Positions 5,897 through 62,832 of a DNA stretch of 64,000 nucleotides are shown piece after piece. Under the pieces are notes generated by a model that was not told where the DNA came from, searched no databases, and was given only the letters and a program-made list of their open reading frames with translations. The stretch is from Candidatus Eiseniibacteriota bacterium (GTDB lineage: Bacteria; Eisenbacteria; RBG-16-71-46; JABDJR01), in NCBI GenBank assembly GCA_942491735.1, contig CALOCN010000001.1, positions 1,030,071-1,094,070 of the forward strand. The letters are read 5' to 3'. Every line of letters starts with the position of its first letter. Within the stretch, counting starts at the first letter, position 1. Both the position numbers and the translations under genes were made by a program.

Positions 5897-5898
5897 CC

Positions 5899-7767
5899 GT
5901 GGGATTCCTGGGGGATCTCCGGTACTTCGGGCCCCGGTTGGGCCCAAACCGGGCCGTCCGACTCGTCGCGGCGAAGCTCTCCAAGACCCGTCGCAAACGC
6001 CGCCTGGCCGCGGATCTCGCCCGCCCCACCCCGCCGGACGCGGTGTGCCGCGGGTTGGGTTTGTCGAAGGACCCCCACGAACGGGTCGCGACCCTGCGCT
6101 CCTCCTGGGAGCAACTCGCCGCCGCCACCCTGCCTTCCCTGCCCGACCCGGACACCGCACGCCGCCACGCCGACGCAGTGCTGGCCGGTCGTCAGCACCT
6201 TTTCGACCAGGATCCCGACGTGGGTTGGCCCCCCAACTGGAACTGGCGCTGGGACGGAACCGACAACGCGGCGCGGTTCCGCGACGACATCCGCAGCACC
6301 TGGGAACTGCAACGTCTCCAGGGGCTGCTTCCGCTGGCCGTCGCGGCGCGGGCCCTGGCCAGCGAGGCGGATGCCGAGGCCTGGTTCACCGGGGTGGAGA
6401 GCTTCGCCGCGGCGCATCCCGGCCCGGGTGGAGTGGCCTGGGAAAGCGCGCTGGAGCTGGGACTCCGCTGCCTTGCCCTGGTCCAGGGGCTGGTCCTACT
6501 CGCGCCCACCGAGGCCTTTGCCACCCGGCACCTGAATGTCCTCACCGTGCTGGAGCGGCACCTGCGTTGGCTGGAGGCGGATCTGAGCCTGGACAAGGTA
6601 GTGCGCGGCAATCACCTCCTGGGCGAACTGGCCGGGCTGATCGCGGGGCGCCTTCTCTTTGCCGCGGACACGGGCAATCTGGAAACAGCCCGCCGGTCGC
6701 TGGACCTCCTGCACGGGGAAATCACAGCCCAGTTTCACCCGGACGGGGTCAACGTGGAGCAGTCCCTCACCTACGAGGCCTTCATCCTGGAGTTCCTGGT
6801 CGTCCCCCTAGCCATGGCCGACACCCTCGGGCGTGCGGTTCCCGCGGCAACCCGGGATCGCCTCACCCGGGCCGCTCACCATCTGGAATGCTGCACCGCG
6901 CCGGACGGATCGCTTCCCCGGGTGGGGGACGCCGATTCGGGCCGTGGAGCTGTCCTCGCCCCACCCAAAGAAGCCCTGCCCGGGCTTCTCGAGCGGGTCC
7001 GCCGGCTCGGCGGACCGGGCCCCGCCGCCTCCGGCGGGCCGTCCGGGGAACCCGCTTTGCCGCGCATCTTCCCCGACGGGGGCCATGTCACCTGGACCCC
7101 GGCCCCCGGGGCGTTCCTCTTCCTGCGGGGAGGGCCGTTTGGCTGGGGTCTTCCGGGACCGGCCTCGCACAGCCACGCGGACCTGCTGGCCCCGGTCCTC
7201 TACCTGGGCGGGGAGCCGCTCCTGGTGGATCCGGGGGTCTTTGGCTATCGCATCGGGGCCGATCGGGACGCGGATCGGGTCCGGGGGGCCCATTCGGCCC
7301 TGGATCCGGGGGCCTCGGTGGGGCCCTTCCCGGCCGGAACCTTCCGCTGGGCGGGCATTCCGGAGGATGCGAAGGTACACTCCCCGGCCCCGGACAGGGT
7401 CCAGGGGACGGTCCCCCTGGCCGGGCCAAACGGCCCTTTGATCTGGCAGAGGTCCATACGGTACAATCAATTAGACGAAACTTGGATAATCCTCGATCGC
7501 CTTCAAGGCAACCCACCCGGCCCCGTAACGTGGGGCTTTCGCTTTGCTCCAGGAATTCATATCGAGTCGGAGACGGAGGGCGTCTACCGGGTTCGTCTGG
7601 CTTCCGGTCGTACCCTGGATGTGCGTCTGGAACCGGTGGGAGAGACATGGGTCGAGGATGCATGGGTGGCGCCGGCCTACGGTCGGCGCGTCCAGGCGCC
7701 GGTTTTGAGGCGACGGATCGAAGGGGCCTTCGAAGAGACGGCCGTGACGTTCACCCCGCGGCGCTGA
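5899..7767 (+). CDS. heparinase II/III-like family protein
   Basis: GTG at 5899, 2 nt after upstream stop, in frame of track ORF 5746..7767; N-terminal [10 protein letters not shown] region and NHLLGE / EQSLTYE segments typical of the family by eye. Confidence 0.6.
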
Positions 7768-7795: not shown

Positions 7796-8728
7796 GTGAA
7801 CATCCTCATTACCGGGGGCGCGGGCTTTATCGGCTCCAATCTCTCCGAGTTCCTTCTGGGGCAGGGCCATCGCGTCATCGCCATGGACAACCTGCTGACC
7901 GGGAAGGTGGAGAACATCGAGCACATCCACCACCCGAAGTTCACGTTCATCGACTATGACGTGACCAACTTCATCTTTGTCGACGAGCCGCTGGACTACG
8001 TGCTGCACTTCGCCAGCCCGGCCAGCCCCATCGACTATCTCAAGCTTCCCATCGCCACCCTGAAGGTGGGGGCGATCGGGACCCACAAGGCGCTCGGGTT
8101 GGCCAAGGCCAAGGGGGCGAGCTTTCTCATCGCGTCGACCAGCGAGGTCTACGGGGATCCGCTGGTCCATCCCCAGGAGGAGTCGTACTGGGGAAACGTG
8201 AACCCCATCGGCATCCGCGGGGTCTATGACGAAGCCAAGCGGTTCGCCGAGGCCATGACCATGGCGTATCACCGGTACCACAAGGTGGACACCCGGATCC
8301 TGCGGATCTTCAACACCTTCGGACCGCGGATGCGCCGCAATGACGGTCGGGCGGTGCCCACCTTCATCAATCAGGCGCTGTCGAACCAGGACATCACGGT
8401 GTTCGGGGACGGATCGCAGACCCGCTCCTTCGGCTACATCGACGACCTGGTGGAGGGCATCTACAAGCTCATGCTCTCCAGCGAGAACGACCCGGTGAAC
8501 ATCGGCAATCCGCAGGAAATGACGGTGAAGGAGATGGCCGAGACCATCATCGAGCTCACCGGCTCCAAGAGCAAGATCATCTACGCGCCGCTTCCCGAGG
8601 ACGATCCCAAGGTGCGTCAGCCGGATATCTCCAAGGCCAAGCGGGTGTTGGACTGGGAACCCCGGACCCCGGTGCGCGAGGGCCTGATCAAGACGGTAGA
8701 ATGGTTCGCTGCCAACCACTCGAAGTGA
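7796..8728 (+). CDS. UDP-glucuronate decarboxylase (UDP-xylose synthase, ArnA-decarboxylase-like SDR)
   Basis: GTG start with AGGAG 5 nt upstream; TGGAGFIGS Rossmann motif, YDEAK catalytic motif; strong by-eye similarity to UXS proteins. Confidence 0.85.
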
Positions 8729-8732
8729 AGGA

Positions 8733-9452
8733 ATGCCTGTGAAGGGCCTCGTGGTCATTCCCACCTATAACGAAGCGGACAACATCCGCGAGCTCGTCCC
8801 CCGTGTCCTGGAACAGGACCCCGGTCTGGAGATCCTCGTCGTCGACGACAACTCGGTCGACGGCACGGGGGCGATCGTCGACGAGTTGCGGGCCACCGAG
8901 CCGCGCCTGCACATTCTCCACCGACCGGGCAAGATGGGTCTGGGTACGGCGTACGTGGACGGGTTCCGCTACGCCCTCGAGCGGGACTACGAAGTCGTGT
9001 TCGAGATGGACGCGGACTTCAGTCATGACCCGGACTCCCTGCCCGCGTTTCTCGAGGCCATCCAGGACAACGACCTGGTCATCGGCTCCCGGTATCTGCA
9101 CGGGGTCACGGTCGTCAACTGGCCGCTGACCCGTCTCATTCTTTCCTACGGGGCGAACGTCTACACCCGTCTCATCACCTGGATGCCGCTCAAGGACGCC
9201 ACCGGCGGCTTCAAGTGTTTCCGGCGGGAGACCCTCGAGGCGATCGACCTGGACCGGGTGGGTTCGGACGGGTACGGCTTCCAGATCGAGATGAACTTCA
9301 AGGTGTGGCGCAAGGGCTTCCGGGTGCGCGAGATCGGCATCGTCTTCGTGGATCGCCGGGTCGGTATCAGCAAGATGAACAACAAGATCATCTGGGAGGC
9401 GATGTGGTTGGTGTGGCGTCTGCGATTCCTCGATCTCGTGGGAAGGCTCTGA
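8733..9452 (+). CDS. polyprenol-phosphate sugar synthase (Dpm1/ArnC-like GT2)
   Basis: 239 aa; VIPTYNEADNI and DADFSHDP motifs characteristic of dolichol/polyprenol-phosphate mannosyl/glycosyl transferases. Confidence 0.8.
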   Translation: MPVKGLVVIPTYNEADNIRELVPRVLEQDPGLEILVVDDNSVDGTGAIVDELRATEPRLHILHRPGKMGLGTAYVDGFRYALERDYEVVFEMDADFSHDPDSLPAFLEAIQDNDLVIGSRYLHGVTVVNWPLTRLILSYGANVYTRLITWMPLKDATGGFKCFRRETLEAIDLDRVGSDGYGFQIEMNFKVWRKGFRVREIGIVFVDRRVGISKMNNKIIWEAMWLVWRLRFLDLVGRL

Positions 9453-9456
9453 GTCC

Positions 9457-11601
9457 GTGGTCGATCTCTCGATCGTCATCGTTTCCTACCGCACACCGGA
9501 GGTGTTGCGGGAGTGCCTGAAGGTGCTCACCACGGATACGGGGACACGCAGCCGCGAGATCCTGGTGGTGGACAACGACTCGGGAGACGAGAGCCCGGCC
9601 GTGGCCCGCTCCTTCGAGGGAGTCCGGGTCATCGAGACCGGTGACAACCTGGGATTTGCCGGCGGCGTCAATCGCGGACTGGCCGAGGCCGACGGCCGTT
9701 TCCTCCTCGTCCTCAACCCGGATATCGAGGTCCAGCCCGGCTCCCTGGACACCCTGATCGACTTCATGGAGGCGCACCCCGAGACCGGGATCGCCGCCCC
9801 CAAGCTGCTCAACACCGACGGCACCCTGCAGCACTCCTGCCGCCGCTTCTACACCCTGAGCACGATCATCCTGCGACGCTCCTTCCTGGGCCGGATCTTT
9901 CCCGATGCCGCGCCGCTGCGGCGGCACCTCATGTTGGACTACGACCACGAGACCCCGCGCGCGGTCGATTGGGTGGCCGGAGCGGCCATGCTGGTGCGTC
10001 GCGAGGCGCTGGACGATGTGGGTCCCATGGACGAGCGCTACTTCCTCTACTTCGAGGACGTGGACTGGTGCACCCGCATGCAGGCCCGCGGTTGGCTGGT
10101 GCACTACGTGCCGGACAGCGTCATGACCCACCATTGGCAACGGGCGAGCCGCACCCTGGGTCCGGCCGCGCGGCGCCACCTGCGCAGCGGGCTCCGCTTC
10201 TACGACCGCTGGGGCGGGTTCCTCCATGTGCTGCGGCAATCGGCCGGTGCGTGGCGGACCGGCGCCCTCGTGGCCCTGGACCTGTTGACCATCACCGCCG
10301 CGTTTCTCCTCGCCTTCCTCGCCCGTCAGCAGATGGCCTTCTGGCTCCAGAAACCGGTCTGGTCGCTCTCCTTCTACGGCAGCTTCTTCGCGGCGAGCGT
10401 GGTGGTGTACCTGGCCGGTTTCTCCATGCAGGGGCTGTACCGGGAAGTCCGCGAGGGGGACTGGGTGGATGTGGCCTTCAGGGTGATCAAGGGAGCGACC
10501 CTGGGCGCGTTGGTGCTGATGGCATCGACCTTCGTCCTGGACATGCGCTCCTACTCCCGCGCCATCGTGCTCGCCTCGTGGCCCCTGGCCGCCATGGGCG
10601 TGTTCCTCAACCGTCGCCTGGTCTACGCGCTCAGCGCGCGGGCGCGCCGCGAGCGGTGGAACCTGCGCCGGGTCGCCCTGATCGGCGAGGACCCGGCCAT
10701 GGATCGTCTGGAAGCCACGCTCCGGGAGAACACTGAGCTGGGCTGGGAACCGGTGCGGATTCGCCGCACTCCCTGGGTGGGTCTGCCGCCCCGGGACGCC
10801 GACGCGCTGCTCATCACCCTCCTGGCCCGGGAGCGGGTCACCGAAGTGGTGGTCAGCCCCACCGCGTTGGGTGTGGCCGAGGATGCCGTGGCCGAACGCA
10901 TTCTCCCGCTGCGCCGCGCCGGTCACGGGGTTCGTCTGGTCTCCAACTTCCTCTCCGCGCTGCCTCCGCGGGCCCGGGTGGAACGGATCGGTGACGTCAG
11001 CTGGCTCGCCCTGGAACGGCCCCGCCTGCAGCCCACCAAGACCAGCAAGCGGGTGCTGGATCTGGCGGGGGCCCTTGTGCTTGGTGGGTTGGGTCTCCTT
11101 CCCGTGTTGGCCCTGGGCGCGGCCCGTGGCCTCGCCCGGCGCGAGTTTCTGGAACCTGGGACCCCCTGGAAGGGTCGATGGGGGGAGACCCTGCGTGTCC
11201 GGCGGATTGCCGGCGGGGGTCGTCTCGCCGATTACCCCCTGCTGGGCGCCGTGCTGAGGGGGCGGCTCAGCCTGGTGGGACCACGTCCGCTGGCTCCGGG
11301 GGAAACGGTTCCCGGGGGAGACGCCTGGCTTCGGGTGCGTGAGCACCACCGTCCCGGTCTGGTGGGTCCCTGGTCGCTGGTCGCGACCCAGACCCCTGAA
11401 GAGGAGATGCAACAGGAACTTCGGTATCTCGAAGATTGGACTGCGGAACTCGATCTCAAGCTCCTGGCGCGGGTGGCACTTCGCCGCCCGGGAGGCGGTC
11501 ATGGCAGCGGGTCCAGTTCTCCCGCGCGTCGCACGGAGACCGCTCCCGATGGCCGACCCTCGGCCGCCCCGCGCAGTGCCCACCCCATGGGGACCTCCTG
11601 A
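9457..11601 (+). CDS. fusion protein: N-terminal GT2 glycosyltransferase + membrane region + C-terminal polyprenyl-phosphate sugar phosphotransferase (Bac_transf-like)
   Basis: GTG start; N-terminus IVIVSYRTPE...VVDNDSGD (GT2); central hydrophobic segments; C-terminal region with RVLDLAGALVLGGLGL and PGLVGPWSL resembling WbaP/WcaJ-type sugar transferases. Confidence 0.65.
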   Translation: MVDLSIVIVSYRTPEVLRECLKVLTTDTGTRSREILVVDNDSGDESPAVARSFEGVRVIETGDNLGFAGGVNRGLAEADGRFLLVLNPDIEVQPGSLDTLIDFMEAHPETGIAAPKLLNTDGTLQHSCRRFYTLSTIILRRSFLGRIFPDAAPLRRHLMLDYDHETPRAVDWVAGAAMLVRREALDDVGPMDERYFLYFEDVDWCTRMQARGWLVHYVPDSVMTHHWQRASRTLGPAARRHLRSGLRFYDRWGGFLHVLRQSAGAWRTGALVALDLLTITAAFLLAFLARQQMAFWLQKPVWSLSFYGSFFAASVVVYLAGFSMQGLYREVREGDWVDVAFRVIKGATLGALVLMASTFVLDMRSYSRAIVLASWPLAAMGVFLNRRLVYALSARARRERWNLRRVALIGEDPAMDRLEATLRENTELGWEPVRIRRTPWVGLPPRDADALLITLLARERVTEVVVSPTALGVAEDAVAERILPLRRAGHGVRLVSNFLSALPPRARVERIGDVSWLALERPRLQPTKTSKRVLDLAGALVLGGLGLLPVLALGAARGLARREFLEPGTPWKGRWGETLRVRRIAGGGRLADYPLLGAVLRGRLSLVGPRPLAPGETVPGGDAWLRVREHHRPGLVGPWSLVATQTPEEEMQQELRYLEDWTAELDLKLLARVALRRPGGGHGSGSSSPARRTETAPDGRPSAAPRSAHPMGTS

Positions 11602-13874
11602 TGCATCACACTCCACGACACGGTCGGCTTCTCCCGGCCGTCCTGGCCCTTCTCGCGATTGCCGTCGCCCTCCCGCCGAACGTCCGGGCCCAGAACGCCG
11701 CCGACGCGTTTACCCCGTTCGTCGCCGCGTTCGACCTCACCGAGATCACCACCACCGGGGGCGTCCTGTGGATCGCCACCAACGGGGGGGGCGCGTTGCG
11801 TTTCGATCCCAACGGCGGCGGGTTCACCCAGTACCCCAAGTTGTTGGGCACCGGGCCGAGGGGCAACGACCTCGTCACCACCTGCGTCGATTCGGAGGGC
11901 CGGGTCTGGTTCGGCAGCGCCACCCGGGGTTTCACCTTCTTTGATCCGCAGACGCAGACCTGGGATCGCCGCTCGGAGGAATGGCCCGACCCACGGATCC
12001 GGGTCATCCGCTGCCTCGAGGAAGGGGTCTACATCGGCACCCAGGAGGGGCTCTCCCTGAAACCCACCGCCAACCGGACCGACATCTGTGCACCGGCCGA
12101 CCCCAGCTGCATTGTTCCCTCGTTCATCGTCAACGACTACGCCCTCCTGGACGAGAGTCTCTGGGTGGCGACCCGCGAGGGGTTGGGACGGTTCAGCGAG
12201 GGGACGTGGGACTCGCTGAACACGCTGCCGGTCGGGTCCCAGGGGCAGAACTCGCTCTCGCTGGTCACCTTCGAGGGGCAGCTCTGGGAAGCGGCGGAGT
12301 TCGCCGCCTCGACCGGGGCGGTGCGACGCCTGGTGGACGGGGCCTGGCAGGTGTTCGAGCTGCCGGCGCACAGGTTGCGCGTCCTCGACGGATCGCTCTA
12401 CGCCATCGCGGCCGGGGATCTGTTCCGCTGGGACGGTACCGCGTTCCAGCCCCTGTCCGAGCCGGTGGACGATGACATTCGCGACGTAGCTCTCCTGGAC
12501 GGTGTCTATTGGTTGACCACCGGCAACGGGTTGGTTTCCTGGAACGGCACCGCGGCCACGTCGACCCGCTTCGTTCCGCCCGGGTTGGGGCTGGGGGGGG
12601 AGTTCCAGGCCCTCACCGTGGACAGCAAGGGGACGGTGTGGGCCGGCACCATCGGGAACCGGATCGGCATTGCCTCCCGGACCCGAACCGGCGAGTGGGA
12701 CACGATCCTGCCGGGAGCGAGCGGCCTGGAGAACGAGTGGATCTTCCAGCTGTATGCCGACAGTGGGGATCGGTTGTGGATCGGACACTGCTGTTGTCCC
12801 GAGGGACGCTGCCGACTCGAGGTGGATTGTGCCGGCGGCATCGGGAGTATCGCCACCTACCGCAACGGGTGGGCGTTCGCCGAGGACAACGCCCGCCGCA
12901 TGTGGGTGGGGACGGATCAACTCGGCGCGTTGGTCTTCCGGCGCACCACGGACTGTTCCTGGGAGCTCGAGGATCAACTGACCGCCTCGGACCCCGCCGG
13001 CGTCATGTCTTCCAACAGCGTGCGCGCCATCGCGGTCACCGGGGAAGGCACCTACTTCGGCCACCTGCAGAACGGGCTCGACTACTGGCCGCACCGCGGC
13101 AACCTGAGCACGGGGCGGGACGGGTCGAACTGGATCCATGTCGGAACCACCGGCTTCGGACTCCTCGACAACAACGTGGGCTCCATTGCCCTGGTGGGGG
13201 AGGATGCCTGGGTCGGCACCTCGAGCGGCCTGCACCGGTTCCGCGCCGGGGGTCTGGTGACCCGGTGTCCCTCGCGTATTCTCGACGACCTGGACGATCA
13301 GGCCCGTCGGGTCACCGCGGTCACCGTCGATCGGGACGGGAACCTCTGGGTGGGGACGGATTCGGGACTGCTGTTCCTGCGGCGCGGAGGAGCCTGTGAC
13401 GCGGGCGGCGGCGAGTTCCTGTCCTACACCCAGGACAACTCCGCACTCCCGGACAACAACGTGCTCTCGGCCACCCTCAACCCGGTGGATGGTTCGGTCT
13501 GGATGGGAACGTCCACCGGTCTGCTGCGGATTGACCCCGCCGTCTTCACCAGCGGAGGAGGGAGCGCACCGGACCAGTACGTGCTCTATCCGAACCCCGT
13601 CGATCTGACCCGGGTCGGGGCGCGGGTGAGTCTGGGACTGGAGTCCGGCGGCTCCGTGGATCGCGTTCCCCTGGCCGATGCCCAGCAGCCGGAGGTCCTC
13701 GACATGGCGGGTCAGGCGGTGGGCCGGTTCGATACCTTCATGGATGGCGGCGACGAGGGTTGGGTGTGGAACGGGAAGAACCTGACCGGGAGCGTGGTCG
13801 CCCCGGGACTCTATTTCGTGCGAACGCAGGTCGGAGGACAGACGGTGGTGCTCAAGCTCGGGGTAGTGCGATGA
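11601..13874 (+). CDS. secreted beta-propeller protein (two-component-regulator-propeller-like repeats) with C-terminal FlgD-Ig/T9SS-like domain
   Basis: Internal ATG 11601 (overlaps upstream stop, TGATG); signal-peptide-like MHHTPRHGRLLPAVLALLAIAVALPPNVRAQ; about 10 repeats of LW[IV]GT..GL..F type; C-terminal YPNP...WNGKN..G..V..GLYFV. Confidence 0.65.
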   Translation: MHHTPRHGRLLPAVLALLAIAVALPPNVRAQNAADAFTPFVAAFDLTEITTTGGVLWIATNGGGALRFDPNGGGFTQYPKLLGTGPRGNDLVTTCVDSEGRVWFGSATRGFTFFDPQTQTWDRRSEEWPDPRIRVIRCLEEGVYIGTQEGLSLKPTANRTDICAPADPSCIVPSFIVNDYALLDESLWVATREGLGRFSEGTWDSLNTLPVGSQGQNSLSLVTFEGQLWEAAEFAASTGAVRRLVDGAWQVFELPAHRLRVLDGSLYAIAAGDLFRWDGTAFQPLSEPVDDDIRDVALLDGVYWLTTGNGLVSWNGTAATSTRFVPPGLGLGGEFQALTVDSKGTVWAGTIGNRIGIASRTRTGEWDTILPGASGLENEWIFQLYADSGDRLWIGHCCCPEGRCRLEVDCAGGIGSIATYRNGWAFAEDNARRMWVGTDQLGALVFRRTTDCSWELEDQLTASDPAGVMSSNSVRAIAVTGEGTYFGHLQNGLDYWPHRGNLSTGRDGSNWIHVGTTGFGLLDNNVGSIALVGEDAWVGTSSGLHRFRAGGLVTRCPSRILDDLDDQARRVTAVTVDRDGNLWVGTDSGLLFLRRGGACDAGGGEFLSYTQDNSALPDNNVLSATLNPVDGSVWMGTSTGLLRIDPAVFTSGGGSAPDQYVLYPNPVDLTRVGARVSLGLESGGSVDRVPLADAQQPEVLDMAGQAVGRFDTFMDGGDEGWVWNGKNLTGSVVAPGLYFVRTQVGGQTVVLKLGVVR

Positions 13875-15325
13875 CTGAGAGTCGGGTCCTCATTGTCGGC
13901 GCGGGGAGCGCCGGGCGTATGACCCTGCGGGAGCTGCGCGCCCATCCGGAATCGGGAACGGTACCGGTCGGGTTCATCGACGATGGCGCCGCGCTGCACG
14001 GCACCGAGGTCGACGGCCTGCCGGTGCTGGGGGGACGCCAGGATCTCCCCGCCCATCTGGAGGCGACCGGCGCCGAGGGCATCCTCATCGCCCTTCCGTC
14101 GGTGCACGGAGCGGTGATCCGGGAGATCGTCGAGACCTGTCGTGAAGCGCGGATCCGCTTCACCATTGTCCCCGGGATCTGGGAGATCATCCGGGGCGAC
14201 GTGCACTTCGAGCACATCCGGCGTATCGAGCCCGAGGATCTGCTCGGTCGTCAGACCGTCGAGGCCGACGCCTCCGTCCTCACCCCGGCCTATCGCGGGA
14301 AGCGGATTCTCGTCACCGGCGCGGGCGGATCCATCGGACGCGAGCTGGCCCGTCAGGTGCTGGCCCTGGAACCGGAGCGGGTCACCCTGCTGGGCCGGGG
14401 GGAGAACAGCCTCTTCGAGAGCGAGCTGCACCTGCGCCCGCATGCCGGACGCACGCCGGTAAACCTGGCCCTGGTCGACGTGCGCGACGTGGCCGCGGTG
14501 ACGCGCACCCTGGCCTCGGTGAAGCCGGACATCGTGCTTCATGCCGCCGCCCACAAGCACGTGACCTTCATGGAGCGCCACCCGGAAGAGGCCATCCTCA
14601 ACAACGTGATCGCCACCCGCAATCTCGTCGTCGCGGCCGAGGCGGCCGGGACCGAGCGCTTCGTCATGCTCTCCACCGACAAGGCGGTGAACCCGCGCAG
14701 TGTCATGGGCGCCTCCAAGCGGGTCGCGGAGCTGGTCCTGGGGGACCGCACCCGTCAGGGCTCCCCGGTGCGTCTCATGGCGGTGCGGTTCGGCAACGTG
14801 CTGGGTAGCCGGGGGTCGGTGGTCCCGCTCTTCCAGCATCAGATCGCCCGGGGAGGGCCGGTCACCGTGTCCCATCAGGACGTGGCCCGCTACTTCATGA
14901 CGGTGAGCGAGGCGGCCATGCTGGTTCTGGAAGCGGGCGCACTGGGAGACGGGGGCGAGGTGTTCATCCTCGACATGGGCGAGCAGCTCTCCATCCTGGA
15001 GTTGGCGCGGGATCTCATCGTGCTTTCGGGCAAGCGGCCCGAGACCGACATCCCGGTGGTCATTACCGGTCTTCAGACCGGCGAGAAACTCCGCGAGGAG
15101 CTGGTCCACGACTTCGAGGAACTGGCTCCCACCCGTCTGGCCAAGATTTCCGCCGCCCGGCGCCGCGAGGGCTCCGATCCCGACCTGTCCCGGGCCCTGG
15201 AAGAGCTGGAGTCGCTGGCGTTGAACGCCGATCGCCGGGGCATCGTCCATGCGCTGACCGCGTTGCTCCCCGAAGCCGAACTGGTACTCCCCGACAAGCC
15301 GGTCGCCGCGGACAGCGACGCCTGA
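13871..15325 (+). CDS. polysaccharide biosynthesis protein CapD/PglF/WbpM family (nucleotide-sugar 4,6-dehydratase), soluble form
   Basis: Internal ATG 13871 (ATGA overlap); two Rossmann-like regions (VGAGSAG, TGAGGSIG) and FGNVLGSRGSV motif. Confidence 0.8.
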   Translation: MTESRVLIVGAGSAGRMTLRELRAHPESGTVPVGFIDDGAALHGTEVDGLPVLGGRQDLPAHLEATGAEGILIALPSVHGAVIREIVETCREARIRFTIVPGIWEIIRGDVHFEHIRRIEPEDLLGRQTVEADASVLTPAYRGKRILVTGAGGSIGRELARQVLALEPERVTLLGRGENSLFESELHLRPHAGRTPVNLALVDVRDVAAVTRTLASVKPDIVLHAAAHKHVTFMERHPEEAILNNVIATRNLVVAAEAAGTERFVMLSTDKAVNPRSVMGASKRVAELVLGDRTRQGSPVRLMAVRFGNVLGSRGSVVPLFQHQIARGGPVTVSHQDVARYFMTVSEAAMLVLEAGALGDGGEVFILDMGEQLSILELARDLIVLSGKRPETDIPVVITGLQTGEKLREELVHDFEELAPTRLAKISAARRREGSDPDLSRALEELESLALNADRRGIVHALTALLPEAELVLPDKPVAADSDA

Positions 15326-15333
15326 GCGGGGCG

Positions 15334-16311
15334 GTGGTGGACGTTCTGGACGCCGACGCGCCCCCCGAGGGAATGGACGCGCTCTGGACCTCGGTGCCCG
15401 GGGCCACCCTGTTCCTGCAACCGAGATGGACCGAGACCCTTTCCCGCGCCTTTCCCGGGCTTCGGTCCCGTTATCTGATCGCCCGCGAGGGGAACCGCCT
15501 GACCGGCGTGTTGCCCTACACCCTCAAACGCAAGCTGGGTCTGGATCAGGTGCTTTCCTCCCCCTTCGGGACCCACGGGGGTCCGCTCACCGCCGACGGT
15601 CCCACCGCATCCCGTCTCGCCGAGGCGTTCCACAAGCGCGCCACCCGCCCCACCGTGGTCCGCTGCGAGCTCACCGTATTCGATCCCTCCTCGGAACTGA
15701 CCGAGGCCCTGCGCCCGTCCCTGGGCACGTGGTTCCAGGAGTTCCAGACCCACGTCATCGACCTCACCCCGGGGCACGAGGAACTCTGGCTTCACCGGTA
15801 TCGGCGCAACACCCGCAACTGTGTCCGGATGGCCGAACGGGCCGGGCTGCTCTACACGGTGGAGCGGGACGAGGCGGCGCTTGCCTTCCTCGCCCGTACC
15901 CACGCCGAACAGGCCGAGGCCTGGACCGGCATTCCTCCCGTCCCCCTGGAGGCGCTGCGGGTGGTGATGGACGCCTACGGTAATGACGCACGCATTCTGG
16001 TGGGACGCCGGGAGGGGGAGCCGGTGTGCGCCATTCTCATGCTGGAACAGTCGGGGCGGGAAACCCACGCCTGGGTCAGCGGAGCGGTGCCCGAAGCACG
16101 GCCCTTGCGCGCCTATCACGGGCTGATCGACGCCACCATCAAGGACGCCTGCTCCCGCGGGGTAGCCGCGTATCACTTCGGCGGAAGCGGTCGGAAGGAA
16201 AAGCTCGAGTTCTTCAAGGAGACCTTCGCCGCCAAACCGGTCCCCGTCTTGCGTTGCTTCCACATGGCGGGCTGGTTTCGCAGGCTCCGCCGGGGGCCGG
16301 CATGGGACTGA
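15334..16311 (+). CDS. FemAB-like / BioF2-like GNAT-fold acyl- or aminoacyl-transferase
   Basis: GTG start; by-eye resemblance to Acetyltransf_6/FemAB family proteins common in EPS loci. Confidence 0.55.
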   Translation: MVDVLDADAPPEGMDALWTSVPGATLFLQPRWTETLSRAFPGLRSRYLIAREGNRLTGVLPYTLKRKLGLDQVLSSPFGTHGGPLTADGPTASRLAEAFHKRATRPTVVRCELTVFDPSSELTEALRPSLGTWFQEFQTHVIDLTPGHEELWLHRYRRNTRNCVRMAERAGLLYTVERDEAALAFLARTHAEQAEAWTGIPPVPLEALRVVMDAYGNDARILVGRREGEPVCAILMLEQSGRETHAWVSGAVPEARPLRAYHGLIDATIKDACSRGVAAYHFGGSGRKEKLEFFKETFAAKPVPVLRCFHMAGWFRRLRRGPAWD

Positions 16312-17891
16312 GCCGGCTCCTGCCCCTGGCCCTGGTCCTGGTCGCCGTCCTGTTGGGGATCGTGCTCGTTGAGCCCTATCGCGCGGTCACGGTCGAGTTC
16401 GACGACGGACGCACCCTGTCCGTGGTGAACCCGGAACGTCTCAACCACACCTCGGACGTGTGGGACTACCTGCAGCTGGGACGCCGGTTGTTCGAGGGAT
16501 ACGGCTTCAGCAGCCGCTTCACCTATGTCCCGTTCCTGCCGGAGTCCGCCGCGTATCTGGAGGAGCATGACGCGTTCCCGCTCCTCTGGCGCCAACCCGG
16601 CTATCCGGCGCTGCTCGCCCTGGGCTACCGGTTGGCCGGGGGGCCGGACCCCAACGTCCTGCTGGCCCTGCAGCTCCTGTGGGTGATCCTGCTCCCCCTG
16701 GCCACGCTCTACCTGGCCCGCGCCCTGCTCCCGCCGGGAGGCGCCGCGCTGGCCGCCGGGCTCGCCCTGGCTTCGCCGCTCGTGCTGGGTGTACGGGAAC
16801 CCTTGGTGGCGACCACCTTCTTTGCCTGCTGGACCGCGCTCCTTTTCGGTACCGCGCTTCGGGTGCGGGGGCCCATGGGGGTGATCGGGTTGGGGCTGTT
16901 GATCGGGGTGGGGGCCTTGTTCCGCCAGGAGACCTGGCTTCTCGTTCCCGCACTGTTCACCGTGTGGTGGGTGCGAGGCGAGCGGGGGCGGGTGAGCGGG
17001 GTGGCCATCGCCGCGGTCACGGTCCTCCTCGTGCTGCTCCCCTGGATGGTTCGCACCGCGCAGATCACCGGGCACCCGTTCTACAACGCGGCGTCGCTGA
17101 TCTACCACGACACCCCGTCCTTTCCCGGCTGGGCCGCCTCGCGCACCCTGGCCATCCGCGAAACGACCCCGCTCGCGTTCATCCTGGCCCATCCCCTCGA
17201 CATCCTGGCCAAGAGTGCGCTGAACCTGCTCCGGTTCGGCAGGGACCTGCTGCTGCTGCCGGGACCTGCCGCGGCCCTGTTCGCCTGGTGGTTCCTCATT
17301 CGTCCCCAGTCGACCCAACCGCGGGTTCGCGCGTACCGGTGGGGCTACCTGGTTGCCCTTGCCGTTCCGGTACTCGTACTGGCCCCCATGGAGTACGCCC
17401 CCCGTTTTCTCGCCCCCATGGTTCCCCTGGGGGCCACCGCGGCCGCCTTCGCCCTGTCCCGGATTCCCGGTCGGTCGCGTCTGTTGACCGTCGTGGTGCT
17501 CGTGGTGTCCCTGGTCGTGCTGGTCTCCGCGATTCGCAACCGACCGGTCCGGGGAACCGCTCCCGAGGCGATTCGCGACCTGCAGGAACTGGTGTTGCAG
17601 GTGGGGCCCCGCGCACTGGAGCCGGACCAGGTCGTGGTGAGCGATGCCCCGACCCTCTTTGCCTATCTCTGGGATCGGCCGGCAGTGTGGGCACCGGTGC
17701 CGTTGAGCATGCCGGCGGTTCGGGAACTGGTCCCGGTCCGGCTCGGTCTCCTCACCTGCACGGGCGGCATCTATGACGGTCTGCCCCCGGAACTCCTGGG
17801 GCGCTACGCGGCCTACGGCCGGGTGACCCCGCATGGGTGTCGGGCCTGGGTGGACTTCGCTGACCCGCCCGCGGAAGCGACCACCCCATGA
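16302..17891 (+). CDS. polytopic membrane protein, putative GT-C glycosyltransferase (ArnT/PMT-like)
   Basis: Internal ATG 16302; many hydrophobic segments; first-loop motif DVWDYLQLGRRLFEGYG resembling the D(E)xxYxxxAR motif of GT39/GT83 enzymes; assignment tentative. Confidence 0.4.
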   Translation: MGLSRLLPLALVLVAVLLGIVLVEPYRAVTVEFDDGRTLSVVNPERLNHTSDVWDYLQLGRRLFEGYGFSSRFTYVPFLPESAAYLEEHDAFPLLWRQPGYPALLALGYRLAGGPDPNVLLALQLLWVILLPLATLYLARALLPPGGAALAAGLALASPLVLGVREPLVATTFFACWTALLFGTALRVRGPMGVIGLGLLIGVGALFRQETWLLVPALFTVWWVRGERGRVSGVAIAAVTVLLVLLPWMVRTAQITGHPFYNAASLIYHDTPSFPGWAASRTLAIRETTPLAFILAHPLDILAKSALNLLRFGRDLLLLPGPAAALFAWWFLIRPQSTQPRVRAYRWGYLVALAVPVLVLAPMEYAPRFLAPMVPLGATAAAFALSRIPGRSRLLTVVVLVVSLVVLVSAIRNRPVRGTAPEAIRDLQELVLQVGPRALEPDQVVVSDAPTLFAYLWDRPAVWAPVPLSMPAVRELVPVRLGLLTCTGGIYDGLPPELLGRYAAYGRVTPHGCRAWVDFADPPAEATTP

Positions 17892-19438
17892 GCCGCATCC
17901 GCACCAACACCGCGGCCCTTACCGTGAGTTTCTTCGCCACCGCGGCGTTCTACTTCGTCCAGCTCAAGATCATCACCAATTTCCTCAGTCAGACGCAGGT
18001 GGGCGCGTGGACCGCGGTGACCGCGACCGCGCTCCTCCTCATTCCCTTTGCCGAATTGGGGATGGCCCAGGTCCTGGTGCGCTACGGCGCCAAGTACGAG
18101 GCCGAGGGACGCGCCGGTCGATTGGTGGGGTTGTTCGTGCTCTCGTTGAAGGTTCTCGCCGGGGGCGCGCTGGTCGCGGCGGGTGTCCTGCTCCTGACCG
18201 GCCCCTCCCTGGCCGAGTTCCTCGGGAAGGGGGATGAGGAGATCAACCGATGGCTGCTGTTGTTGGGCTTCGCCGCGCTGACCACCGGTTCGCTTCGCGC
18301 CCTGAACAACGCCGCCCTGAGAGGTCTGCGTCGCATGCCGGCCATGGCCGGGTTGGAGATCGGTTTCGGCGCGCTGGTCACGGTGGGTTACTTCCTCTTT
18401 CGTGACCGTCTGGATGTGGGCATGGTGTTCGTGCTCTGGGGTGCGGCGAGCCTCGGGGTCGCGGTGAGCGGCATGGTCTATCTGGTGCGACAGTTCCGCG
18501 CGCTCCCCCCCGATCCCGCGCCCGGAGGGATCCTGCGCGAAGTGCAGGGGTTCTGGCAGGGGGCGGCGACCGGCGGCATTTTCCTCATCGCCATCGAACA
18601 ACTCGACAAGCCCATCCTGGCCGGAATGGTCACCCTGGACCAGCTCGCCCTCTTCCATGTCGCGTCGCGGCTTGCGTTGTTCCCGAGGCGATTGGCCTAT
18701 GTTCCGCTCCAGGTGCTCTACCCGGAAATCACCCACAAGTGGGAGGGGCCCCGGCGTCACGAGTTGCGCGCGGACATGGAGTTGTTCACCAAGCTGATGC
18801 TGGGACTGGGGCTGGCCATGGTCGCGGTCCTGGCCGTCTTCGCCGAACCCCTGCTCCGTCTCAGCTCCAAACCCGAGTACGTGAGCGCAGCCCCGGTGCT
18901 GTGGATGTTCCTGGCCGTGCTGCCGCTCATCTCGCTGCATCAGCCCATGGTCGTCTTCCTGCGTGCCACCGGCATGGTCTGGTACGCCTTCGTGGCCGAG
19001 GCGGCGTGGCTCGTTTCCTACCTGGGAGTGGGGATGCTGCTCCTGTCCCGGTTCGGTCTTCCCGGTTTCGTGGGTGGGCAACTGGTCGCCTCGAGCCTGG
19101 TGCTGGTCTACCTCCTGTTCATCTTCCACCGCCTGGAACTGCCCCGTCCCACCGTGGTCTTCTACCTCAAGCGCTTCCTGGTTTCGACCTTGGTGTGGGT
19201 TCCCTCCGTGGCCATCGGTTCCCGCTTCACCCCGGAGACGATTCCCGCGGCCCTGGTTGCGGTGGTGGGTCTGCTGCTGGTGGGGAATCTGATGGTGGTG
19301 TTGGGCGGTTTCCTCACCCGGGACGAGGAGGACCGGACCCTGGCCATGTTGGCCGGCCGGGGTCGTCTGGGGAGCCTGATCGGATTCTTCTTCGCCTGGC
19401 CACGACGCTTGCTGGGCCTGCGGGGGACGAGCGGGTGA
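17888..19438 (+). CDS. Wzx-like flippase (MOP-superfamily polysaccharide biosynthesis protein)
   Basis: 516 aa, hydrophobic throughout with multiple predicted TM helices; ATG overlaps upstream stop (ATGA). Confidence 0.7.
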   Translation: MSRIRTNTAALTVSFFATAAFYFVQLKIITNFLSQTQVGAWTAVTATALLLIPFAELGMAQVLVRYGAKYEAEGRAGRLVGLFVLSLKVLAGGALVAAGVLLLTGPSLAEFLGKGDEEINRWLLLLGFAALTTGSLRALNNAALRGLRRMPAMAGLEIGFGALVTVGYFLFRDRLDVGMVFVLWGAASLGVAVSGMVYLVRQFRALPPDPAPGGILREVQGFWQGAATGGIFLIAIEQLDKPILAGMVTLDQLALFHVASRLALFPRRLAYVPLQVLYPEITHKWEGPRRHELRADMELFTKLMLGLGLAMVAVLAVFAEPLLRLSSKPEYVSAAPVLWMFLAVLPLISLHQPMVVFLRATGMVWYAFVAEAAWLVSYLGVGMLLLSRFGLPGFVGGQLVASSLVLVYLLFIFHRLELPRPTVVFYLKRFLVSTLVWVPSVAIGSRFTPETIPAALVAVVGLLLVGNLMVVLGGFLTRDEEDRTLAMLAGRGRLGSLIGFFFAWPRRLLGLRGTSG

Positions 19439-20403
19439 CGGTGCGGTTCGGTTGGGGACTCGCCCAAGCCGAGCCCCTGCTGGAGCGGGCGCCCAGCCTG
19501 TTCCAGACGCCCCGTTGGCTGCACGCGTTGGCCGGCGCCTATCCCCGGTTTCGGCTCGGGGCGTTCCGGGTGGAACGGGATGGGGTGGTGACAGCGGTGC
19601 TCCCGGTGGCCCGGGCCAGGCCCTCGGGCCTGCACGAGTGGGTCTCGCTTCCCTTCGGCACCGACGGGGGGCCGGTGTTCCGGGAGACTCCCGATCCCGA
19701 GGCAGCTACGCAGCTGTTCCGGGCCTTTCGCGACCGGGTGGGGGGACTGCGGGTGGCCCGGTACGAGATGGTCATCCCCCAACCGGGTGAAACGGTGGCG
19801 CGTGCGTTTCGCGACGTGTTCTCCACCCGGGTGCGCGAGGACCGGGTGCGGGTGTTGGAATTGACCGAGGGACCCCGGGCGATCTGGGATGGCTACGCCG
19901 GTACCATGCGCACCCGGATCCGCCGTGCCCGGGAACTCGGGGTCCGGGTGGAGTCCATGCCGGCCTCGGCCCAGGCCCTGGCCCGGTTCTATCCCCCTTA
20001 CGAACGCCTCAGCCACGCATGGGATCTGTCCTGGCGTCACGACCGGGAGACCCTGGAGGCCTTGACCGCCGGTCTCGGGGATGGGGCGCGGATCTGGGTG
20101 GGATCGGTGGAGGGCCGGGTGGTCACCACCGAACTCATGCTCTACGACCGGGGCACCACCGCGCACACCTGGCTCTGCGGCGCGGTTCCCGAGTCCCGGG
20201 ATGTCTTTGCCCGCCATCTGTTGTTGCACACGGTGATCGAGAACGCCGCGCGGGAGGGCTACCGGCGGATGGTCTTCGGGGCCAGCGGGGGGAGCGACGG
20301 GGTGGACGGGTTCAAGCGCGGGTTCGGGGGCTCTCCGCGCCCCGTGCTGCGGGCCTTCCATCAGGCCCGTTGGGTCGATTGGGTGCAGCGGGCCCGATGG
20401 TGA
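19435..20403 (+). CDS. FemAB-like / BioF2-like GNAT-fold transferase (second copy)
   Basis: GTG at 19435 overlapping flippase stop (GTGA); C-terminal half resembles gene 15334-16311 (TWLCGAVPESR vs AWVSGAVPEAR; FGASGGSDG vs FGGSGRKEK). Confidence 0.55.
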   Translation: MTVRFGWGLAQAEPLLERAPSLFQTPRWLHALAGAYPRFRLGAFRVERDGVVTAVLPVARARPSGLHEWVSLPFGTDGGPVFRETPDPEAATQLFRAFRDRVGGLRVARYEMVIPQPGETVARAFRDVFSTRVREDRVRVLELTEGPRAIWDGYAGTMRTRIRRARELGVRVESMPASAQALARFYPPYERLSHAWDLSWRHDRETLEALTAGLGDGARIWVGSVEGRVVTTELMLYDRGTTAHTWLCGAVPESRDVFARHLLLHTVIENAAREGYRRMVFGASGGSDGVDGFKRGFGGSPRPVLRAFHQARWVDWVQRARW

Positions 20404-20435
20404 TACACTTTTTCGGATTTTGCCCCGGGAGACCC

Positions 20436-21464
20436 ATGAACAGACACCACATCCTCCGCCGTCCGACCGCGATCCACGCGCTGAGCCTTCTCGTTCTTGT
20501 CGCCTTCGGCTGCTCGGGAGAGCCGGGCCAGAGCGGGGAACTTGGTCCCGGGGCCTATGTCGACGAGCACGTGCCCCCGACGGTGCGTACCTCCCTCGAG
20601 GAAGCGGCAGGCAAGTTCTATGCCTCCATCCGCTCCGGGAACCCGGAGATGGTTCTCGCCCAGGTTGCCCTGGCTGCGCGCAGTCAGATCACCGCCGACC
20701 AGTTCCTCGAGTCCGTGCAACGCATCGCCGGAACCTTCGGGATGCCGGAGGACATGTCCACGGACTCGGTGGTCCTGGTGAAGTTCGGCCCGGGCTACCC
20801 GCACGCGGCCCGGGTGCGGGCCCCGGTCGAGGGGATGGACGACGACGCGGAGCTGTTGCTGACCCCGCATCCGGAGCAGGCCTCGCTGGTCCAGATCGGG
20901 CGGGTGGGCGAGGAGCGGGCCTATTTCTCGACCCTGTGGTTCAAGGAGGAAGCCGGGTGGCGGGTCGCCGCCTTCTTTGCCAAGCCGGCCACCATGGTGG
21001 GGCGCGACTGGCGCGACTACTCCGAGGAAGCGGCGTCCCAGCGACTGGCCAAGAACAACCGCAACGCGGCGATTCTCTACAACCTCGCCATCGATCTCAC
21101 CGTTCCGGCGGCGTGGATCAAACCGGCCGGGGTGGCCGAGCTGCAACGCGCGCAGAAGCGCATCATGGTCACCCAGCTTCCCACCGGAAAGCCGGAGGTC
21201 TGGGGGGCCGCACCCGACACCTTCTCCGTGGCCCGGGTCGGCTATGGCTGGGTTCCCGAGGGCCTGACCGTCTACGTGCAGTACCAGGCGACCGGCACCG
21301 ACAGCCTGTCCGAGGCTCCGCACAGCGAGCGGCTCAGGGACTATGTCGTGGAGACCTTCCCGGAGTACCGTGAAGTGTTCACCGGCATGTCCGCGGTGGG
21401 CTATCGCCCGGGGGAATCCACCCCGGTCCTGTCCCGCAACTTCTTCTGGAAGGACGGGTCGTGA
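20436..21464 (+). CDS. hypothetical lipoprotein
   Basis: ATG 20436; signal peptide with lipobox LVAFGC; preceded by an AT-rich stretch (tgatacactttttcggattttg); no recognisable domain. Confidence 0.55.
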   Translation: MNRHHILRRPTAIHALSLLVLVAFGCSGEPGQSGELGPGAYVDEHVPPTVRTSLEEAAGKFYASIRSGNPEMVLAQVALAARSQITADQFLESVQRIAGTFGMPEDMSTDSVVLVKFGPGYPHAARVRAPVEGMDDDAELLLTPHPEQASLVQIGRVGEERAYFSTLWFKEEAGWRVAAFFAKPATMVGRDWRDYSEEAASQRLAKNNRNAAILYNLAIDLTVPAAWIKPAGVAELQRAQKRIMVTQLPTGKPEVWGAAPDTFSVARVGYGWVPEGLTVYVQYQATGTDSLSEAPHSERLRDYVVETFPEYREVFTGMSAVGYRPGESTPVLSRNFFWKDGS

Positions 21465-35529: not shown

Positions 35530-35614
35530 GTCGAAAACCTCCCGTTCGAGATGCAGGGACGTCTTCGGGGCGGGGAACGCCGGACGAGTGACGCGGGGGG
35601 ATCAGCGCACGGCA

Positions 35615-41669: not shown

Positions 41670-41777
41670 GAATGGGACTCCTGAGGTTGCGGTGGGCCTA
41701 CGAGCATACCACTTTGATCTCTTATCGAACAAAGTCTTTAGTCAACTGCAACCGGTTGCTGGATATGCGTTTGTGGC

Positions 41778-55159: not shown

Positions 55160-55252
55160 GGAGCACCTCCTGGGAGCTATCCAGAGACGCGCATTTTCCG
55201 CGGCGACGAGGCCATCCTGACCGTGAAGCCGTCCACGAAAACCCCTGCCCCG

Positions 55253-58170: not shown

Positions 58171-58536
58171 CGGCGTCTCCTGGCTGGGATGCCCGGACGG
58201 GACGTCCGAGACTAGCAGGAAACGCGTGAATGGAGGCCGGAACCGGCCAGGGACGCTGGCCCATACGGCGAAATTCCTTGTTGAAATCGAATCTGATGTC
58301 CTCTACTTTCGAGAACTGAGCCGAGTCTATTGCGGTTCCGGTCAGAATGCGCTCCGTGGATCCGCGGCCGAAATACTTGTTCGCCGCCACCATGTGATCC
58401 CGGGCACGGGCCGGACCCCCCACTCGACGCATCGAACGTTCTATTACGGTTTCGCGTGCGACCCGGGCCTCTCGCACGCGTTGTGGGAAGTGGTTTGTGC
58501 TTCCCGACCAGTGAAAAAACATCCAGGAGGCCCTCC

Positions 58537-62742: not shown

Positions 62743-62832
62743 GTGGACTCGTCGGGGGATCCGTTCCGGCCTGCCCGGATCGGGCGGGTCCCCCGGCCGT
62801 CCACGTTTTTGGGGGGAGGTGCCTGGAGGTTC

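Follow-up and report, generated by a model that had tools for sequence, protein, structure and literature searches.

Polyprenyl-phosphate glycosyltransferases and a GT-C enzyme in a surface-glycan operon of Candidatus Eiseniibacteriota

Gtr-type systems consist of the flippase GtrA, the undecaprenyl-phosphate (Und-P) glucose synthase GtrB and a serotype-specific glycosyltransferase (GT) of the GT-C type (PMC11127046). Similarly, DPM1/Ppm1 synthases are paired with PMT-family GT-C mannosyltransferases in eukaryotes, archaea and Actinobacteria (PMC5526996, PMC3485146). In the GT136 pentofuranose systems, a polyprenyl phosphoribose synthase makes the donor from phosphoribosyl pyrophosphate, and a small transporter of the EmrE/ArnE kind flips it (PMC11127046, Kelly et al. 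2024). Here, we analysed a 64-kb stretch of DNA from a Candidatus Eiseniibacteriota bacterium (contig CALOCN010000001.1), which is referred to as the window, and in particular its positions 7796-17891. This segment had initially been annotated as a possible periplasmic pentose-transfer pathway that parallels the Arn system, in which a UDP-uronate is decarboxylated, the product loaded onto Und-P, flipped and transferred in the periplasm.

The genes on which this proposal was built, coding for a UDP-xylose synthase (UXS), a family 2 glycosyltransferase (GT2), a multi-transmembrane protein and a flippase, are all present. Since both types of partner are encoded in the operon, the logic of the Gtr, Arn and PMT systems, namely the formation of a lipid-monophosphate sugar followed by a periplasmic GT-C transfer, is well supported. 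Moreover, we show that the operon encodes two cytoplasmic-face polyprenyl-phosphate GTs without transmembrane (TM) helices, each directly after a gene for a nucleotide-sugar enzyme of the short-chain dehydrogenase/reductase (SDR) type, which is UXS in one case and GalE-like in the other. The second pair, SDR2-GT2a, was overlooked in the initial annotation and is at least as good a donor candidate for the GT-C enzyme. Between a hexose and xylose, the former is the more likely lipid-linked sugar. The genes that carry this argument are the following:

1255-2205, + strand: SDR2, a short GalE-like nucleoside diphosphate-sugar 4-epimerase (PF01370; 192 bits to the UDP-glucose 4-epimerases 7ys8 and 4zrm)
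2202-2951, + strand: GT2a, a predicted TM-less ArnC/GtrB-type polyprenyl-phosphate GT of 249 amino acids; 4 bp overlap with SDR2
7796-8728, + strand: UDP-glucuronate decarboxylase/UDP-xylose synthase (UXS) of 310 amino acids (match to human UXS1, 4gll and 2b69)
8733-9452, + strand: predicted DPM1-type polyprenyl-phosphate GT of 239 amino acids, consisting of a catalytic domain and interface helices with no TM domain (PF00535, E 1.6e-34)
16302-17891, + strand: predicted GT-C_A glycosyltransferase of 529 amino acids from a divergent PMT_2/ArnT-like subfamily (PF13231; AlphaFold2 fold)
17888-19438, + strand: Wzx/MOP-family flippase of 516 amino acids (PF01943, E 1.4e-11; at least 12 hydrophobic segments)

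The GT-C enzyme and two polyprenyl-phosphate glycosyltransferases

The protein encoded at 16302-17891 had been described as a multi-TM protein with a GT-C-like loop motif. It contains at least nine hydrophobic segments according to TM prediction and matches the PMT_2 profile PF13231 with 28.1 bits, compared with a gathering score of 26.1. Sequence searches against the chains of the PDB were fruitless, as the single sequence gave no match and profile A1 only a spurious designed protein (E 0.78), so that a fold comparison was needed. The AlphaFold2 model, calculated from 24 homologues, reached a pLDDT of 93.4 and a pTM of 0.92, and all Foldseek matches with E ≤ 0.001 are GT-C_A enzymes, namely AglB, STT3, PglB, ArnT, AftA, AftD, ALG9 and DPY19. 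Identity to solved GT-C enzymes is 8-15%. The PMT_2 match above the gathering score and the predicted GT-C_A fold agree with the earlier description. A Wzy polymerase, an O-antigen ligase (WaaL) and a SEDS protein were also considered for this gene and rejected, as it matches PMT_2 and its structural matches are restricted to GT-C_A enzymes. The loop motif, DVWDYLQLGRRLFEGYG, corresponds to residues 52-68, of which D52, D55, Y56, Q58 and R61 are invariant among 24 homologues, and D52 shows a conservation of at least 90% across 41 distant relatives. In the model, the acidic motif forms the N-terminus of a helix (residues 52-64) past TM1, on what would be the periplasmic side. D52-x-x-D55, with which the first periplasmic-loop helix begins, is a probable catalytic acidic motif. 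A word search retrieved 26 homologues, and of the 4791 relatives that a profile search of 1.84 billion representatives yielded at E ≤ 1e-3, no more than 42 reached E ≤ 1e-30. PF13231 is matched by 31 of the 41 nearest out-group relatives (best E 2.1e-17), and no GT2 was found in the neighbourhood of the nearest one, P0160. Sequence and predicted fold place the protein in a small, divergent and phylum-restricted branch of the PMT_2/ArnT-like family; unlike true PMTs, the protein lacks a MIR domain.

The best Foldseek E-values belong to the oligosaccharyltransferases AglB and STT3, which brings up a different role for the enzyme. It could act as a ligase or oligosaccharyltransferase that transfers a Wzx-flipped undecaprenyl-diphosphate (Und-PP) oligosaccharide en bloc to a protein, such as a type IX secretion system (T9SS) cargo or a PorZ-like protein, or to a lipid, and would in this way replace the absent Wzy or WaaL. 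Neither a WaaL-like nor a Wzy gene is present in the operon (32-23547), whose only polytopic proteins are a fusion protein, the GT-C enzyme and Wzx. The GT-C gene is overlapped by a FemAB-family gene, Fem1, upstream and by Wzx downstream, and a PorZ-like protein is encoded in the operon, both of which would suit such a ligase. A 428-aa protein encoded between GT-C and Wzx in relatives was considered as Wzy and rejected, as it has no TM segments and is thus soluble, which also fits with a need for a ligase. On the other hand, the enzyme is a PMT_2 protein by sequence, and the characterised members of this family, ArnT and the PMTs, use polyprenyl-monophosphate monosaccharides. In the model, the chain continues for only about 90 residues beyond the last TM helix, and a large C-terminal domain such as that of STT3, PglB and AglB is missing. 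Furthermore, if the enzyme were an essential ligase, its absence from locus L018, in which the rest of the operon is intact, would be unexpected. Taken together, we regard an en bloc transfer as very unlikely.

The gene for the DPM1-type GT2 starts 4 nt past the stop codon of UXS, and its product is predicted to be without hydrophobic segments. Residues 4-231 align with the catalytic domain of the Pyrococcus furiosus dolichol-phosphate mannose synthase (PfDPMS, 5mlz) with an E-value of 3.2e-33, whereas comparison with PDB sequences gave 8e-6 for ArnC and 4e-4 for GtrB. To assign residue roles, the PfDPMS alignment was mapped onto those stated for that enzyme (PMC5526996). Residues Y12, E14, D39, G69-L70, D93-A-D95 and H98 correspond to Y10, E12, D39, G68-L69, D89-A-D91 and H94 of PfDPMS, and R120, R134, S138, R208 and K214 to R117, R131, S135, R202 and K208. 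The DAD motif, the acceptor-phosphate residues R120, R134 and S138 and the A-loop residues R208 and K214 are all kept, and the same is true for the guanine contacts D39, G69 and L70 and the mannose O2/O3/O6 contacts D93, H98 and R120. The position of PfDPMS K178 is occupied by Q, as in human DPM1, to which the protein is 37% identical, and the contact positions are compatible with a UDP-sugar as well. Homologues are named polyprenol monophosphomannose synthase or dolichol-phosphate mannosyltransferase by NCBI/JGI. A PfDPMS variant without its TM domain still reaches the membrane and is active (PMC5526996), which makes a TM-less polyprenyl-phosphate GT credible. A processive GT2 synthase was considered and rejected, as the 239-aa protein has no TM segment and no multi-TM channel domain; its matches to PgaC and chondroitin synthase are limited to the N-terminal ~110 residues. 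The earlier view of this GT2 as a Dpm1-like polyprenyl-phosphate sugar synthase thus holds, and a pathway from a polyprenyl-phosphate sugar to the GT-C enzyme is plausible with a Dpm1-like, non-processive GT2. By homology, 8733-9452 most likely codes for a polyprenyl-phosphate mannose synthase with GDP-mannose as donor.

The second donor arm lies at 1255-2951. SDR2 matches the GalE model TIGR01179 with 165 bits, below the cutoff of 262. The top PDB sequence matches of GT2a are ArnC (E 8e-13, residues 12-207), PfDPMS and GtrB, and the same three proteins account for all of the top 18 Foldseek matches of its AlphaFold2 model (pLDDT 90; TMq 0.61-0.78). D103-G-D105-N-Q107, R130, R139, S143 and R210 of GT2a correspond to D100-A-D102-L-Q104, R128, R137, S141 and R205 of ArnC. 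All these signature residues are invariant in 22 homologues except N106, which is nearly invariant. Juxtamembrane helices are present in the model at residues 137-154 and 220-248; no hydrophobic segment and no C-terminal pair of TM helices were found, and a basic amphipathic helix forms the C-terminus. By sequence and model, GT2a is best classified as a polyprenyl-phosphate GT of the ArnC/GtrB type.

A metagenome scan for GT2a returned 80 loci (42-80% identity) from organisms of 25-67% GC. In 34 of the 53 loci with enough flanking sequence, a protein of at least 350 amino acids with at least six TM segments is encoded on the same strand within 1.1 kb of the GT2a homologue, compared with a background of 5 in 75 large open reading frames (ORFs) further off. 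Around close homologues (at least 57% identity), an SDR2 homologue is adjacent in 10 of 11 loci, 7 of which also contain a ~540-aa polytopic protein; in L022, the SDR2-GT2a pair and the polytopic protein have the same arrangement. Two of the neighbouring membrane proteins score above Pfam gathering scores (PF09594 GT87, 36.4 bits; PF13231 PMT_2, 34.7 bits), and further ones match the GT-C profile A2 (28-44 bits; high compositional bias). The L022 protein is one with GT-C-like architecture and a 35.9-bit match to A2, again with high compositional bias, and an hhalign comparison of A1 against it was not significant. A UXS homologue was a neighbour in none of the 80 loci. With this pairing frequency and the recognisable GT-C neighbours, GT2a-type synthases are habitual partners of GT-C-like proteins, without a link to UXS.

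A GalE-like SDR gene followed by one for a TM-less polyprenyl-phosphate GT, often together with a methyltransferase gene, was also seen at 58-71% identity in L021, L022, L024, L026-L032, L037, L038 and L091 (25-54% GC), where the pair is usually located directly 3' of a ~540-aa polytopic GT-C-like protein. The combination of a GalE-like SDR with a TM-less ArnC/GtrB-type GT appears to be a compact and so far undescribed cassette. Homologues of the methyltransferase at 2994-3737 adjoin GT2a homologues in L021, L022 and L091, which come from other phyla. Distant GT2a homologues (42-48% identity) are found immediately downstream of membrane proteins of ~760-1230 amino acids with 8-18 predicted TM segments (L053, L054, L058, L060, L061, L068, L073, L077, L080, L084, L085, L098-L100 and L102), and none of the four large proteins tested had a Pfam match.

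Conservation of the gene pairs and the lipid-linked sugar

UXS matches human UXS1 over its full length with 346 bits (E 1.9e-102), and the catalytic Thr/Ser-Glu, Tyr-x3-Lys and Arg motifs, QTRSF among them, are aligned, compared with 152 bits for the runner-up family and ~84 bits for ArnA among PDB sequences. By these scores we take it to be a true UDP-xylose synthase. It was initially presented as a homolog of the ArnA decarboxylase domain; the homology stands, but the protein is orthologous to true UXS, sharing 57% class identity with human UXS1, and is not an ArnA-type producer of a 4-keto-pentose. The locus resembles the Arn system in this homology, in that ArnC is the nearest solved relative of GT2a and in that the GT-C enzyme has ArnT as one of its best structural matches. 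However, the gene next to UXS is of the DPM1 type and not of the ArnC type, and ArnB, the ArnA formyltransferase, ArnD and ArnE/F were not found in the window. More broadly, Pfam and NCBIfam searches identified no Ugd, ManB/C, aminotransferase, formyltransferase, deformylase or Wzy among the genes of the window, and no ORF of 70-220 amino acids with at least three TM segments, as expected for a GtrA or ArnE/F candidate, is present in the 64 kb. The flippase that was included in the earlier proposal does exist, but it is of the Wzx/MOP type, and Wzx-type flippases normally flip Und-PP-oligosaccharides. The parallel to the Arn pathway is therefore not maintained.

In its overall design, the locus resembles the Gtr type, in that GT2-family polyprenyl-phosphate GTs and a GT-C enzyme are located in a Wzx-dependent glycan locus and the GT-C gene is variably present, as for a decoration enzyme. 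It differs in having no GtrA-like small membrane protein, in having two synthases for one GT-C enzyme and in that neither synthase has a C-terminal TM hairpin like that of GtrB. Unlike in DPM1/PMT systems, the DPM1-type gene here belongs to a polysaccharide operon in a phylum of the FCB group, directly after UXS, and no gene for GDP-mannose synthesis is present in the window. With the GT136 systems, the locus could share the concept of an extracytoplasmic pentose addition by a GT-C enzyme from a lipid-monophosphate donor; however, phosphoribose synthase and EmrE/ArnE-like genes were not found in the window, and a route from UDP-xylose via a GT2 enzyme is without precedent in the searched literature.

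The gene order of the operon recurs in more than 12 independent loci from metagenome-assembled genomes (MAGs) and metagenomes, which is more than expected by chance. The recurring order is heparinase-like, UXS, DPM1-like GT2, a fusion of a GT2 and a phosphoglycosyl transferase (PGT), propeller, PglF-like, FemAB-like, GT-C, Wzx, FemAB-like, a protein of unknown family, GT4 and GT2. In some loci, the parts are separated. The genes from the fusion up to and including the last GT2, with GT-C among them, are retained in L014 as a core without UXS-GT2 beside it, and upstream of this core only an aminotransferase and a symporter gene are found, on the opposite strand. L018 contains both SDR-GT2 pairs and the remaining operon but no GT-C, and Wzx directly follows the FemAB-like gene. 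In L017, the heparinase-UXS-GT2 trio is intact and lies 6.5 kb from the fusion gene. UXS-GT2 and the GT-C gene can thus occur apart from each other, and the assumed functional link between them is not supported. Since it is missing from L018 with the rest of the operon intact and its orthologues are only 36-53% identical, compared with about 76-85% for UXS, the DPM1-type GT2 and GT2a across Eisenbacteria loci (77-84% for UXS), GT-C behaves as an accessory gene. On a complete 6.45 Mb Eiseniibacteriota chromosome, a 39%-identical GT-C paralogue (L012, 7808-11503) is arranged head-to-head with a second PMT_2-like GT-C (195 bits with profile A2), next to a GT4 gene and away from any UXS or DPM1-like gene.

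According to the initial annotation, xylose or another pentose is the lipid-linked sugar. UXS would then produce UDP-xylose, the DPM1-like GT2 would form Und-P-xylose and, after flipping, the GT-C enzyme would transfer the pentose; alternatively, SDR2 would convert UDP-xylose to UDP-L-arabinose, to be loaded by GT2a. The adjacency of UXS and GT2 in all Eisenbacteria loci seen, including the split-off trio of L017, agrees with this, but it was found within this one phylum (no scan was aimed at UXS-DPM1 adjacency elsewhere) and may reflect inherited synteny. The SDR-then-GT order is present twice in the operon, and this repetition keeps the xylose claim alive. The SDR2-GT2a pair is maintained in organisms of 25-37% GC, so that such an arrangement may result from the channelling of a substrate. 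Among solved enzymes, ArnC is the one most closely related to GT2a, and it does use a UDP-L-arabinose derivative; the GT2 next to UXS, however, is far nearer to the GDP-mannose-dependent PfDPMS than to the UDP-dependent ArnC or GtrB and keeps all signature residues of that synthase, including the guanine and mannose contacts. In addition, the lack of UXS beside metagenomic GT2a homologues and the separate occurrence of GT-C and UXS-GT2 in L014 and L018 argue against a pentose pathway, and Und-P-Xyl, Dol-P-Xyl and related terms are not mentioned in the searched literature. The case for xylose is thus one of gene adjacency in a single phylum and is opposed by a DPMS-like active site; we consider it quite unlikely.

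Instead, we propose that the GT-C enzyme adds a hexose-type branch, derived from the DPM1-type and/or the GT2a donor, to the operon's own Wzx-exported glycan, while UDP-xylose is used by a cytoplasmic GT, a model that we hold to be evenly balanced between right and wrong. To this end, one or both GT2 enzymes would transfer a monosaccharide from a nucleotide sugar to Und-P at the inner face of the membrane. The sugar would be mannose in the case of the DPM1-type enzyme and/or a 4-epimerised hexose or N-acetylhexosamine in the case of the SDR2-GT2a arm. In the next step, the lipid-phosphate sugar would be moved to the outer face of the membrane, a step for which no dedicated flippase was identified. 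The GT-C enzyme would then transfer the sugar onto the operon glycan after its export by Wzx, as an accessory side-branch decoration of the Gtr type. UDP-xylose is probably, and most simply, used for the addition of a xylose residue in the cytoplasm by one of the operon's five Leloir-type GT domains (GT4a, GT4b, GT2c and the GT2 domain of the fusion protein being candidates).

Several points speak against this model. The SDR2-then-GT2a order parallels UXS-then-GT2 and suggests that an SDR may feed the polyprenyl-phosphate GT downstream of it, which favours a pentose, and all Eisenbacteria loci examined have UXS next to the DPM1-like GT2. The donor sugar is not readable from the sequence of either GT2. 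In the DPM1-type enzyme, the positions compared belong largely to a common catalytic architecture, and with UDP-Glc the activity of PfDPMS was only residual and lay within the estimated error (PMC5526996). A flippase acting on a lipid-monophosphate sugar was not found in the window. The export pathway is also not a textbook Wzx/Wzy pathway, as Wzy is absent and the PGT lacks its catalytic dyad. In the fusion protein (9457-11601), the PF02397 match covers profile positions 88-172 only, TIGR03025 scores 133 bits, below its cutoff, and the PGT dyad is replaced ('RLADYPLL' compared with 'SLDELPQL' in WbaP); in seven orthologues (L001, L003, L004, L007, L010, L011 and L013), the dyad position reads RE, RS, RH, RL or QG. 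Going by these replacements, the WbaP-like domain is probably a pseudo-enzyme and not an active PGT, which leaves the operon without an evident initiating transferase.

It is also conceivable that the neighbouring genes have no functional link at all. The DPM1-like GT2 could be the general polyprenyl-phosphate mannose synthase of the phylum and serve GT-C enzymes elsewhere, UXS could feed a cytoplasmic xylosyltransferase, the GT-C enzyme could receive its donor from GT2a or from outside the operon, and the synteny could be inherited. Homologues of the synthase form more than 120 clusters at ≥73% identity compared with only 26 homologues of this GT-C enzyme, so the synthase is far more widespread; in L018 it occurs without GT-C, and the L012 paralogues show that GT-C enzymes are encoded elsewhere on an Eisenbacteria chromosome. 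However, in the loci examined the synthase is never found outside this operon context, and the operon is tightly packed with apparent translational coupling, as judged from the gene spacing. This explanation seems unlikely to us, and we favour the hexose-branch model.

The wider operon and the type IX secretion context

The GC content of the window is 64-71%, and the nearest relatives of its genes are found in Candidatus Eisenbacteria (Eiseniibacteriota) MAGs. Genes were called using the periodicity of the GC content at third codon positions (GC3) together with an inspection of start codons, which revealed a single unbroken gene run on the + strand from 32 to 24401. Most neighbouring operon genes overlap by 1-10 nt or are 2-42 nt apart, with spacings of, in order, 35, -4, 42, -4, 2, 28, 4, 4, -1, -4, 8, -10, -4, -4, -7, -4, -4 and -4 nt. 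This tight spacing makes 7796-17891 the middle of one ~24 kb operon, a Wzx-dependent surface-glycan operon (32-23547) that is conserved throughout Candidatus Eisenbacteria and runs past the left edge of the window. Its remaining genes are:

32-1219, + strand: GT4a, a GT4 glycosyltransferase and the first visible operon gene (PF13692 and PF00534; best NCBIfam match TIGR04063, PEP-CTERM/XrtA-system GT, below cutoff)
2994-3737, + strand: S-adenosylmethionine-dependent methyltransferase (PF13489)
3734-5896, + strand: two-domain oxidoreductase composed of a zinc alcohol dehydrogenase (zinc-ADH) and a Gfo/Idh/MocA domain (PF00107 and PF01408)
5899-7767, + strand: heparinase II/III-like protein (PF07940 and PF16889)
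9457-11601, + strand: fusion protein with an N-terminal GT2 domain, 4 TM segments, a CoA_binding_3-like domain and a WbaP-like PGT domain (PF00535, PF13727 and PF02397)
11601-13874, + strand: PorZ-like beta-propeller protein with an N-terminal signal/TM segment and a T9SS-type C-terminal domain (PF07494)
13871-15325, + strand: PglF/PseB-like UDP-GlcNAc 4,6-dehydratase (PF02719, E 1e-97; TIGR03589, 158 bits, below cutoff)
15334-16311, + strand: Fem1, a FemAB-family acyl or aminoacyl transferase, whose end overlaps the GT-C start by 10 bp (PF13480; TIGR03019 pepcterm_femAB, 74 bits, below cutoff)
19435-20403, + strand: Fem2, a second FemAB-family transferase (PF13480; TIGR03019, 46.7 bits, below cutoff)
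20397-21464, + strand: protein of 355 amino acids without Pfam or NCBIfam match, with one predicted N-terminal hydrophobic segment
21461-22606, + strand: GT4b, a GT4 glycosyltransferase (PF00534 and PF13477)
22603-23547, + strand: EpsD-like Leloir-type GT2, the last biosynthetic gene of the operon (PF00535; NF041875 EpsD, 191 bits, below cutoff)

Among the conserved genes of the operon are those for the zinc-ADH/Gfo/Idh/MocA oxidoreductase and the heparinase II/III-like protein (3734-7767; L017 7028-10720), and the heparinase-like gene stays with UXS and the DPM1-like GT2 where the operon is split (L017). Most relatives contain two additional genes between GT-C and Wzx, which code for a soluble protein of 424-428 amino acids without Pfam match and an Acetyltransf_9 protein (L003, L004, L007-L011, L016 and L020); both are absent from the window and from L001. 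In L018, the 355-aa protein is fused to the C-terminus of Wzx (17482-19998), which implies a physical partnership with the flippase.

The wider operon shows contextual similarities to the Wbp/Vim genes of Porphyromonas gingivalis and the T9SS cargo linker A-LS (PMC7468200, PMC13086638). The linker is a single-copy pentasaccharide with an unexplained labile pentose branch (PMC13086638). The operon shares with this system FemAB-family genes of TIGR03019, the family of VimA, as well as a Gfo/Idh/MocA oxidoreductase, a WbaP-like protein, GT4 enzymes, Wzx and a PorZ-like protein, and an asparagine synthase is encoded upstream in relatives. It differs in that all family matches are below curated cutoffs and that a VimE-like deacetylase, WbpA and an aminotransferase were not found in the window. 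The propeller protein (11601-13874) has 757 amino acids, compared with 758 residues in the PorZ chain, and matches PorZ (5m11) with E 2.5e-9; its T9SS_PorZ match is confined to the C-terminal 190 amino acids and, with 83.8 bits, stays below the cutoff of 260. A Por_Secre_tail or FlgD_ig domain forms the end of at least five other proteins of the window (34018-35601, 39627-41741, 51803-55252, 58297-62742 and 62743-63696). By analogy to the P. gingivalis linker, the operon may build an anchor glycan for T9SS cargo outside the Bacteroidota. One might further speculate that the GT-C enzyme adds a polyprenyl-phosphate-linked pentose as a branch onto such an anchor glycan, with either Und-P-xylose made by the DPM1-like GT2 or Und-P-L-arabinose made by SDR2 and GT2a as donor, a combination that we judge to be distinctly unlikely.

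A polyprenyl-phosphate xylose donor would, if true, be a new lipid intermediate, which the evidence does not favour. The co-occurrence of FemAB/VimA-like genes, a PorZ-like protein and UXS makes the product of this operon a candidate T9SS-cargo tether glycan outside the Bacteroidota. If the hexose-branch model is correct, it would be a routine extension of what is known, in that an uncultured candidate phylum uses the familiar decoration of surface glycans by a polyprenyl-phosphate sugar and a GT-C enzyme. In addition, the set formed by a TM-less ArnC/GtrB-type synthase, a 4-epimerase-like SDR and a polytopic GT-C-like protein, which extends across organisms of 25% to 70% GC, could serve as a genomic marker for periplasmic glycosylation.

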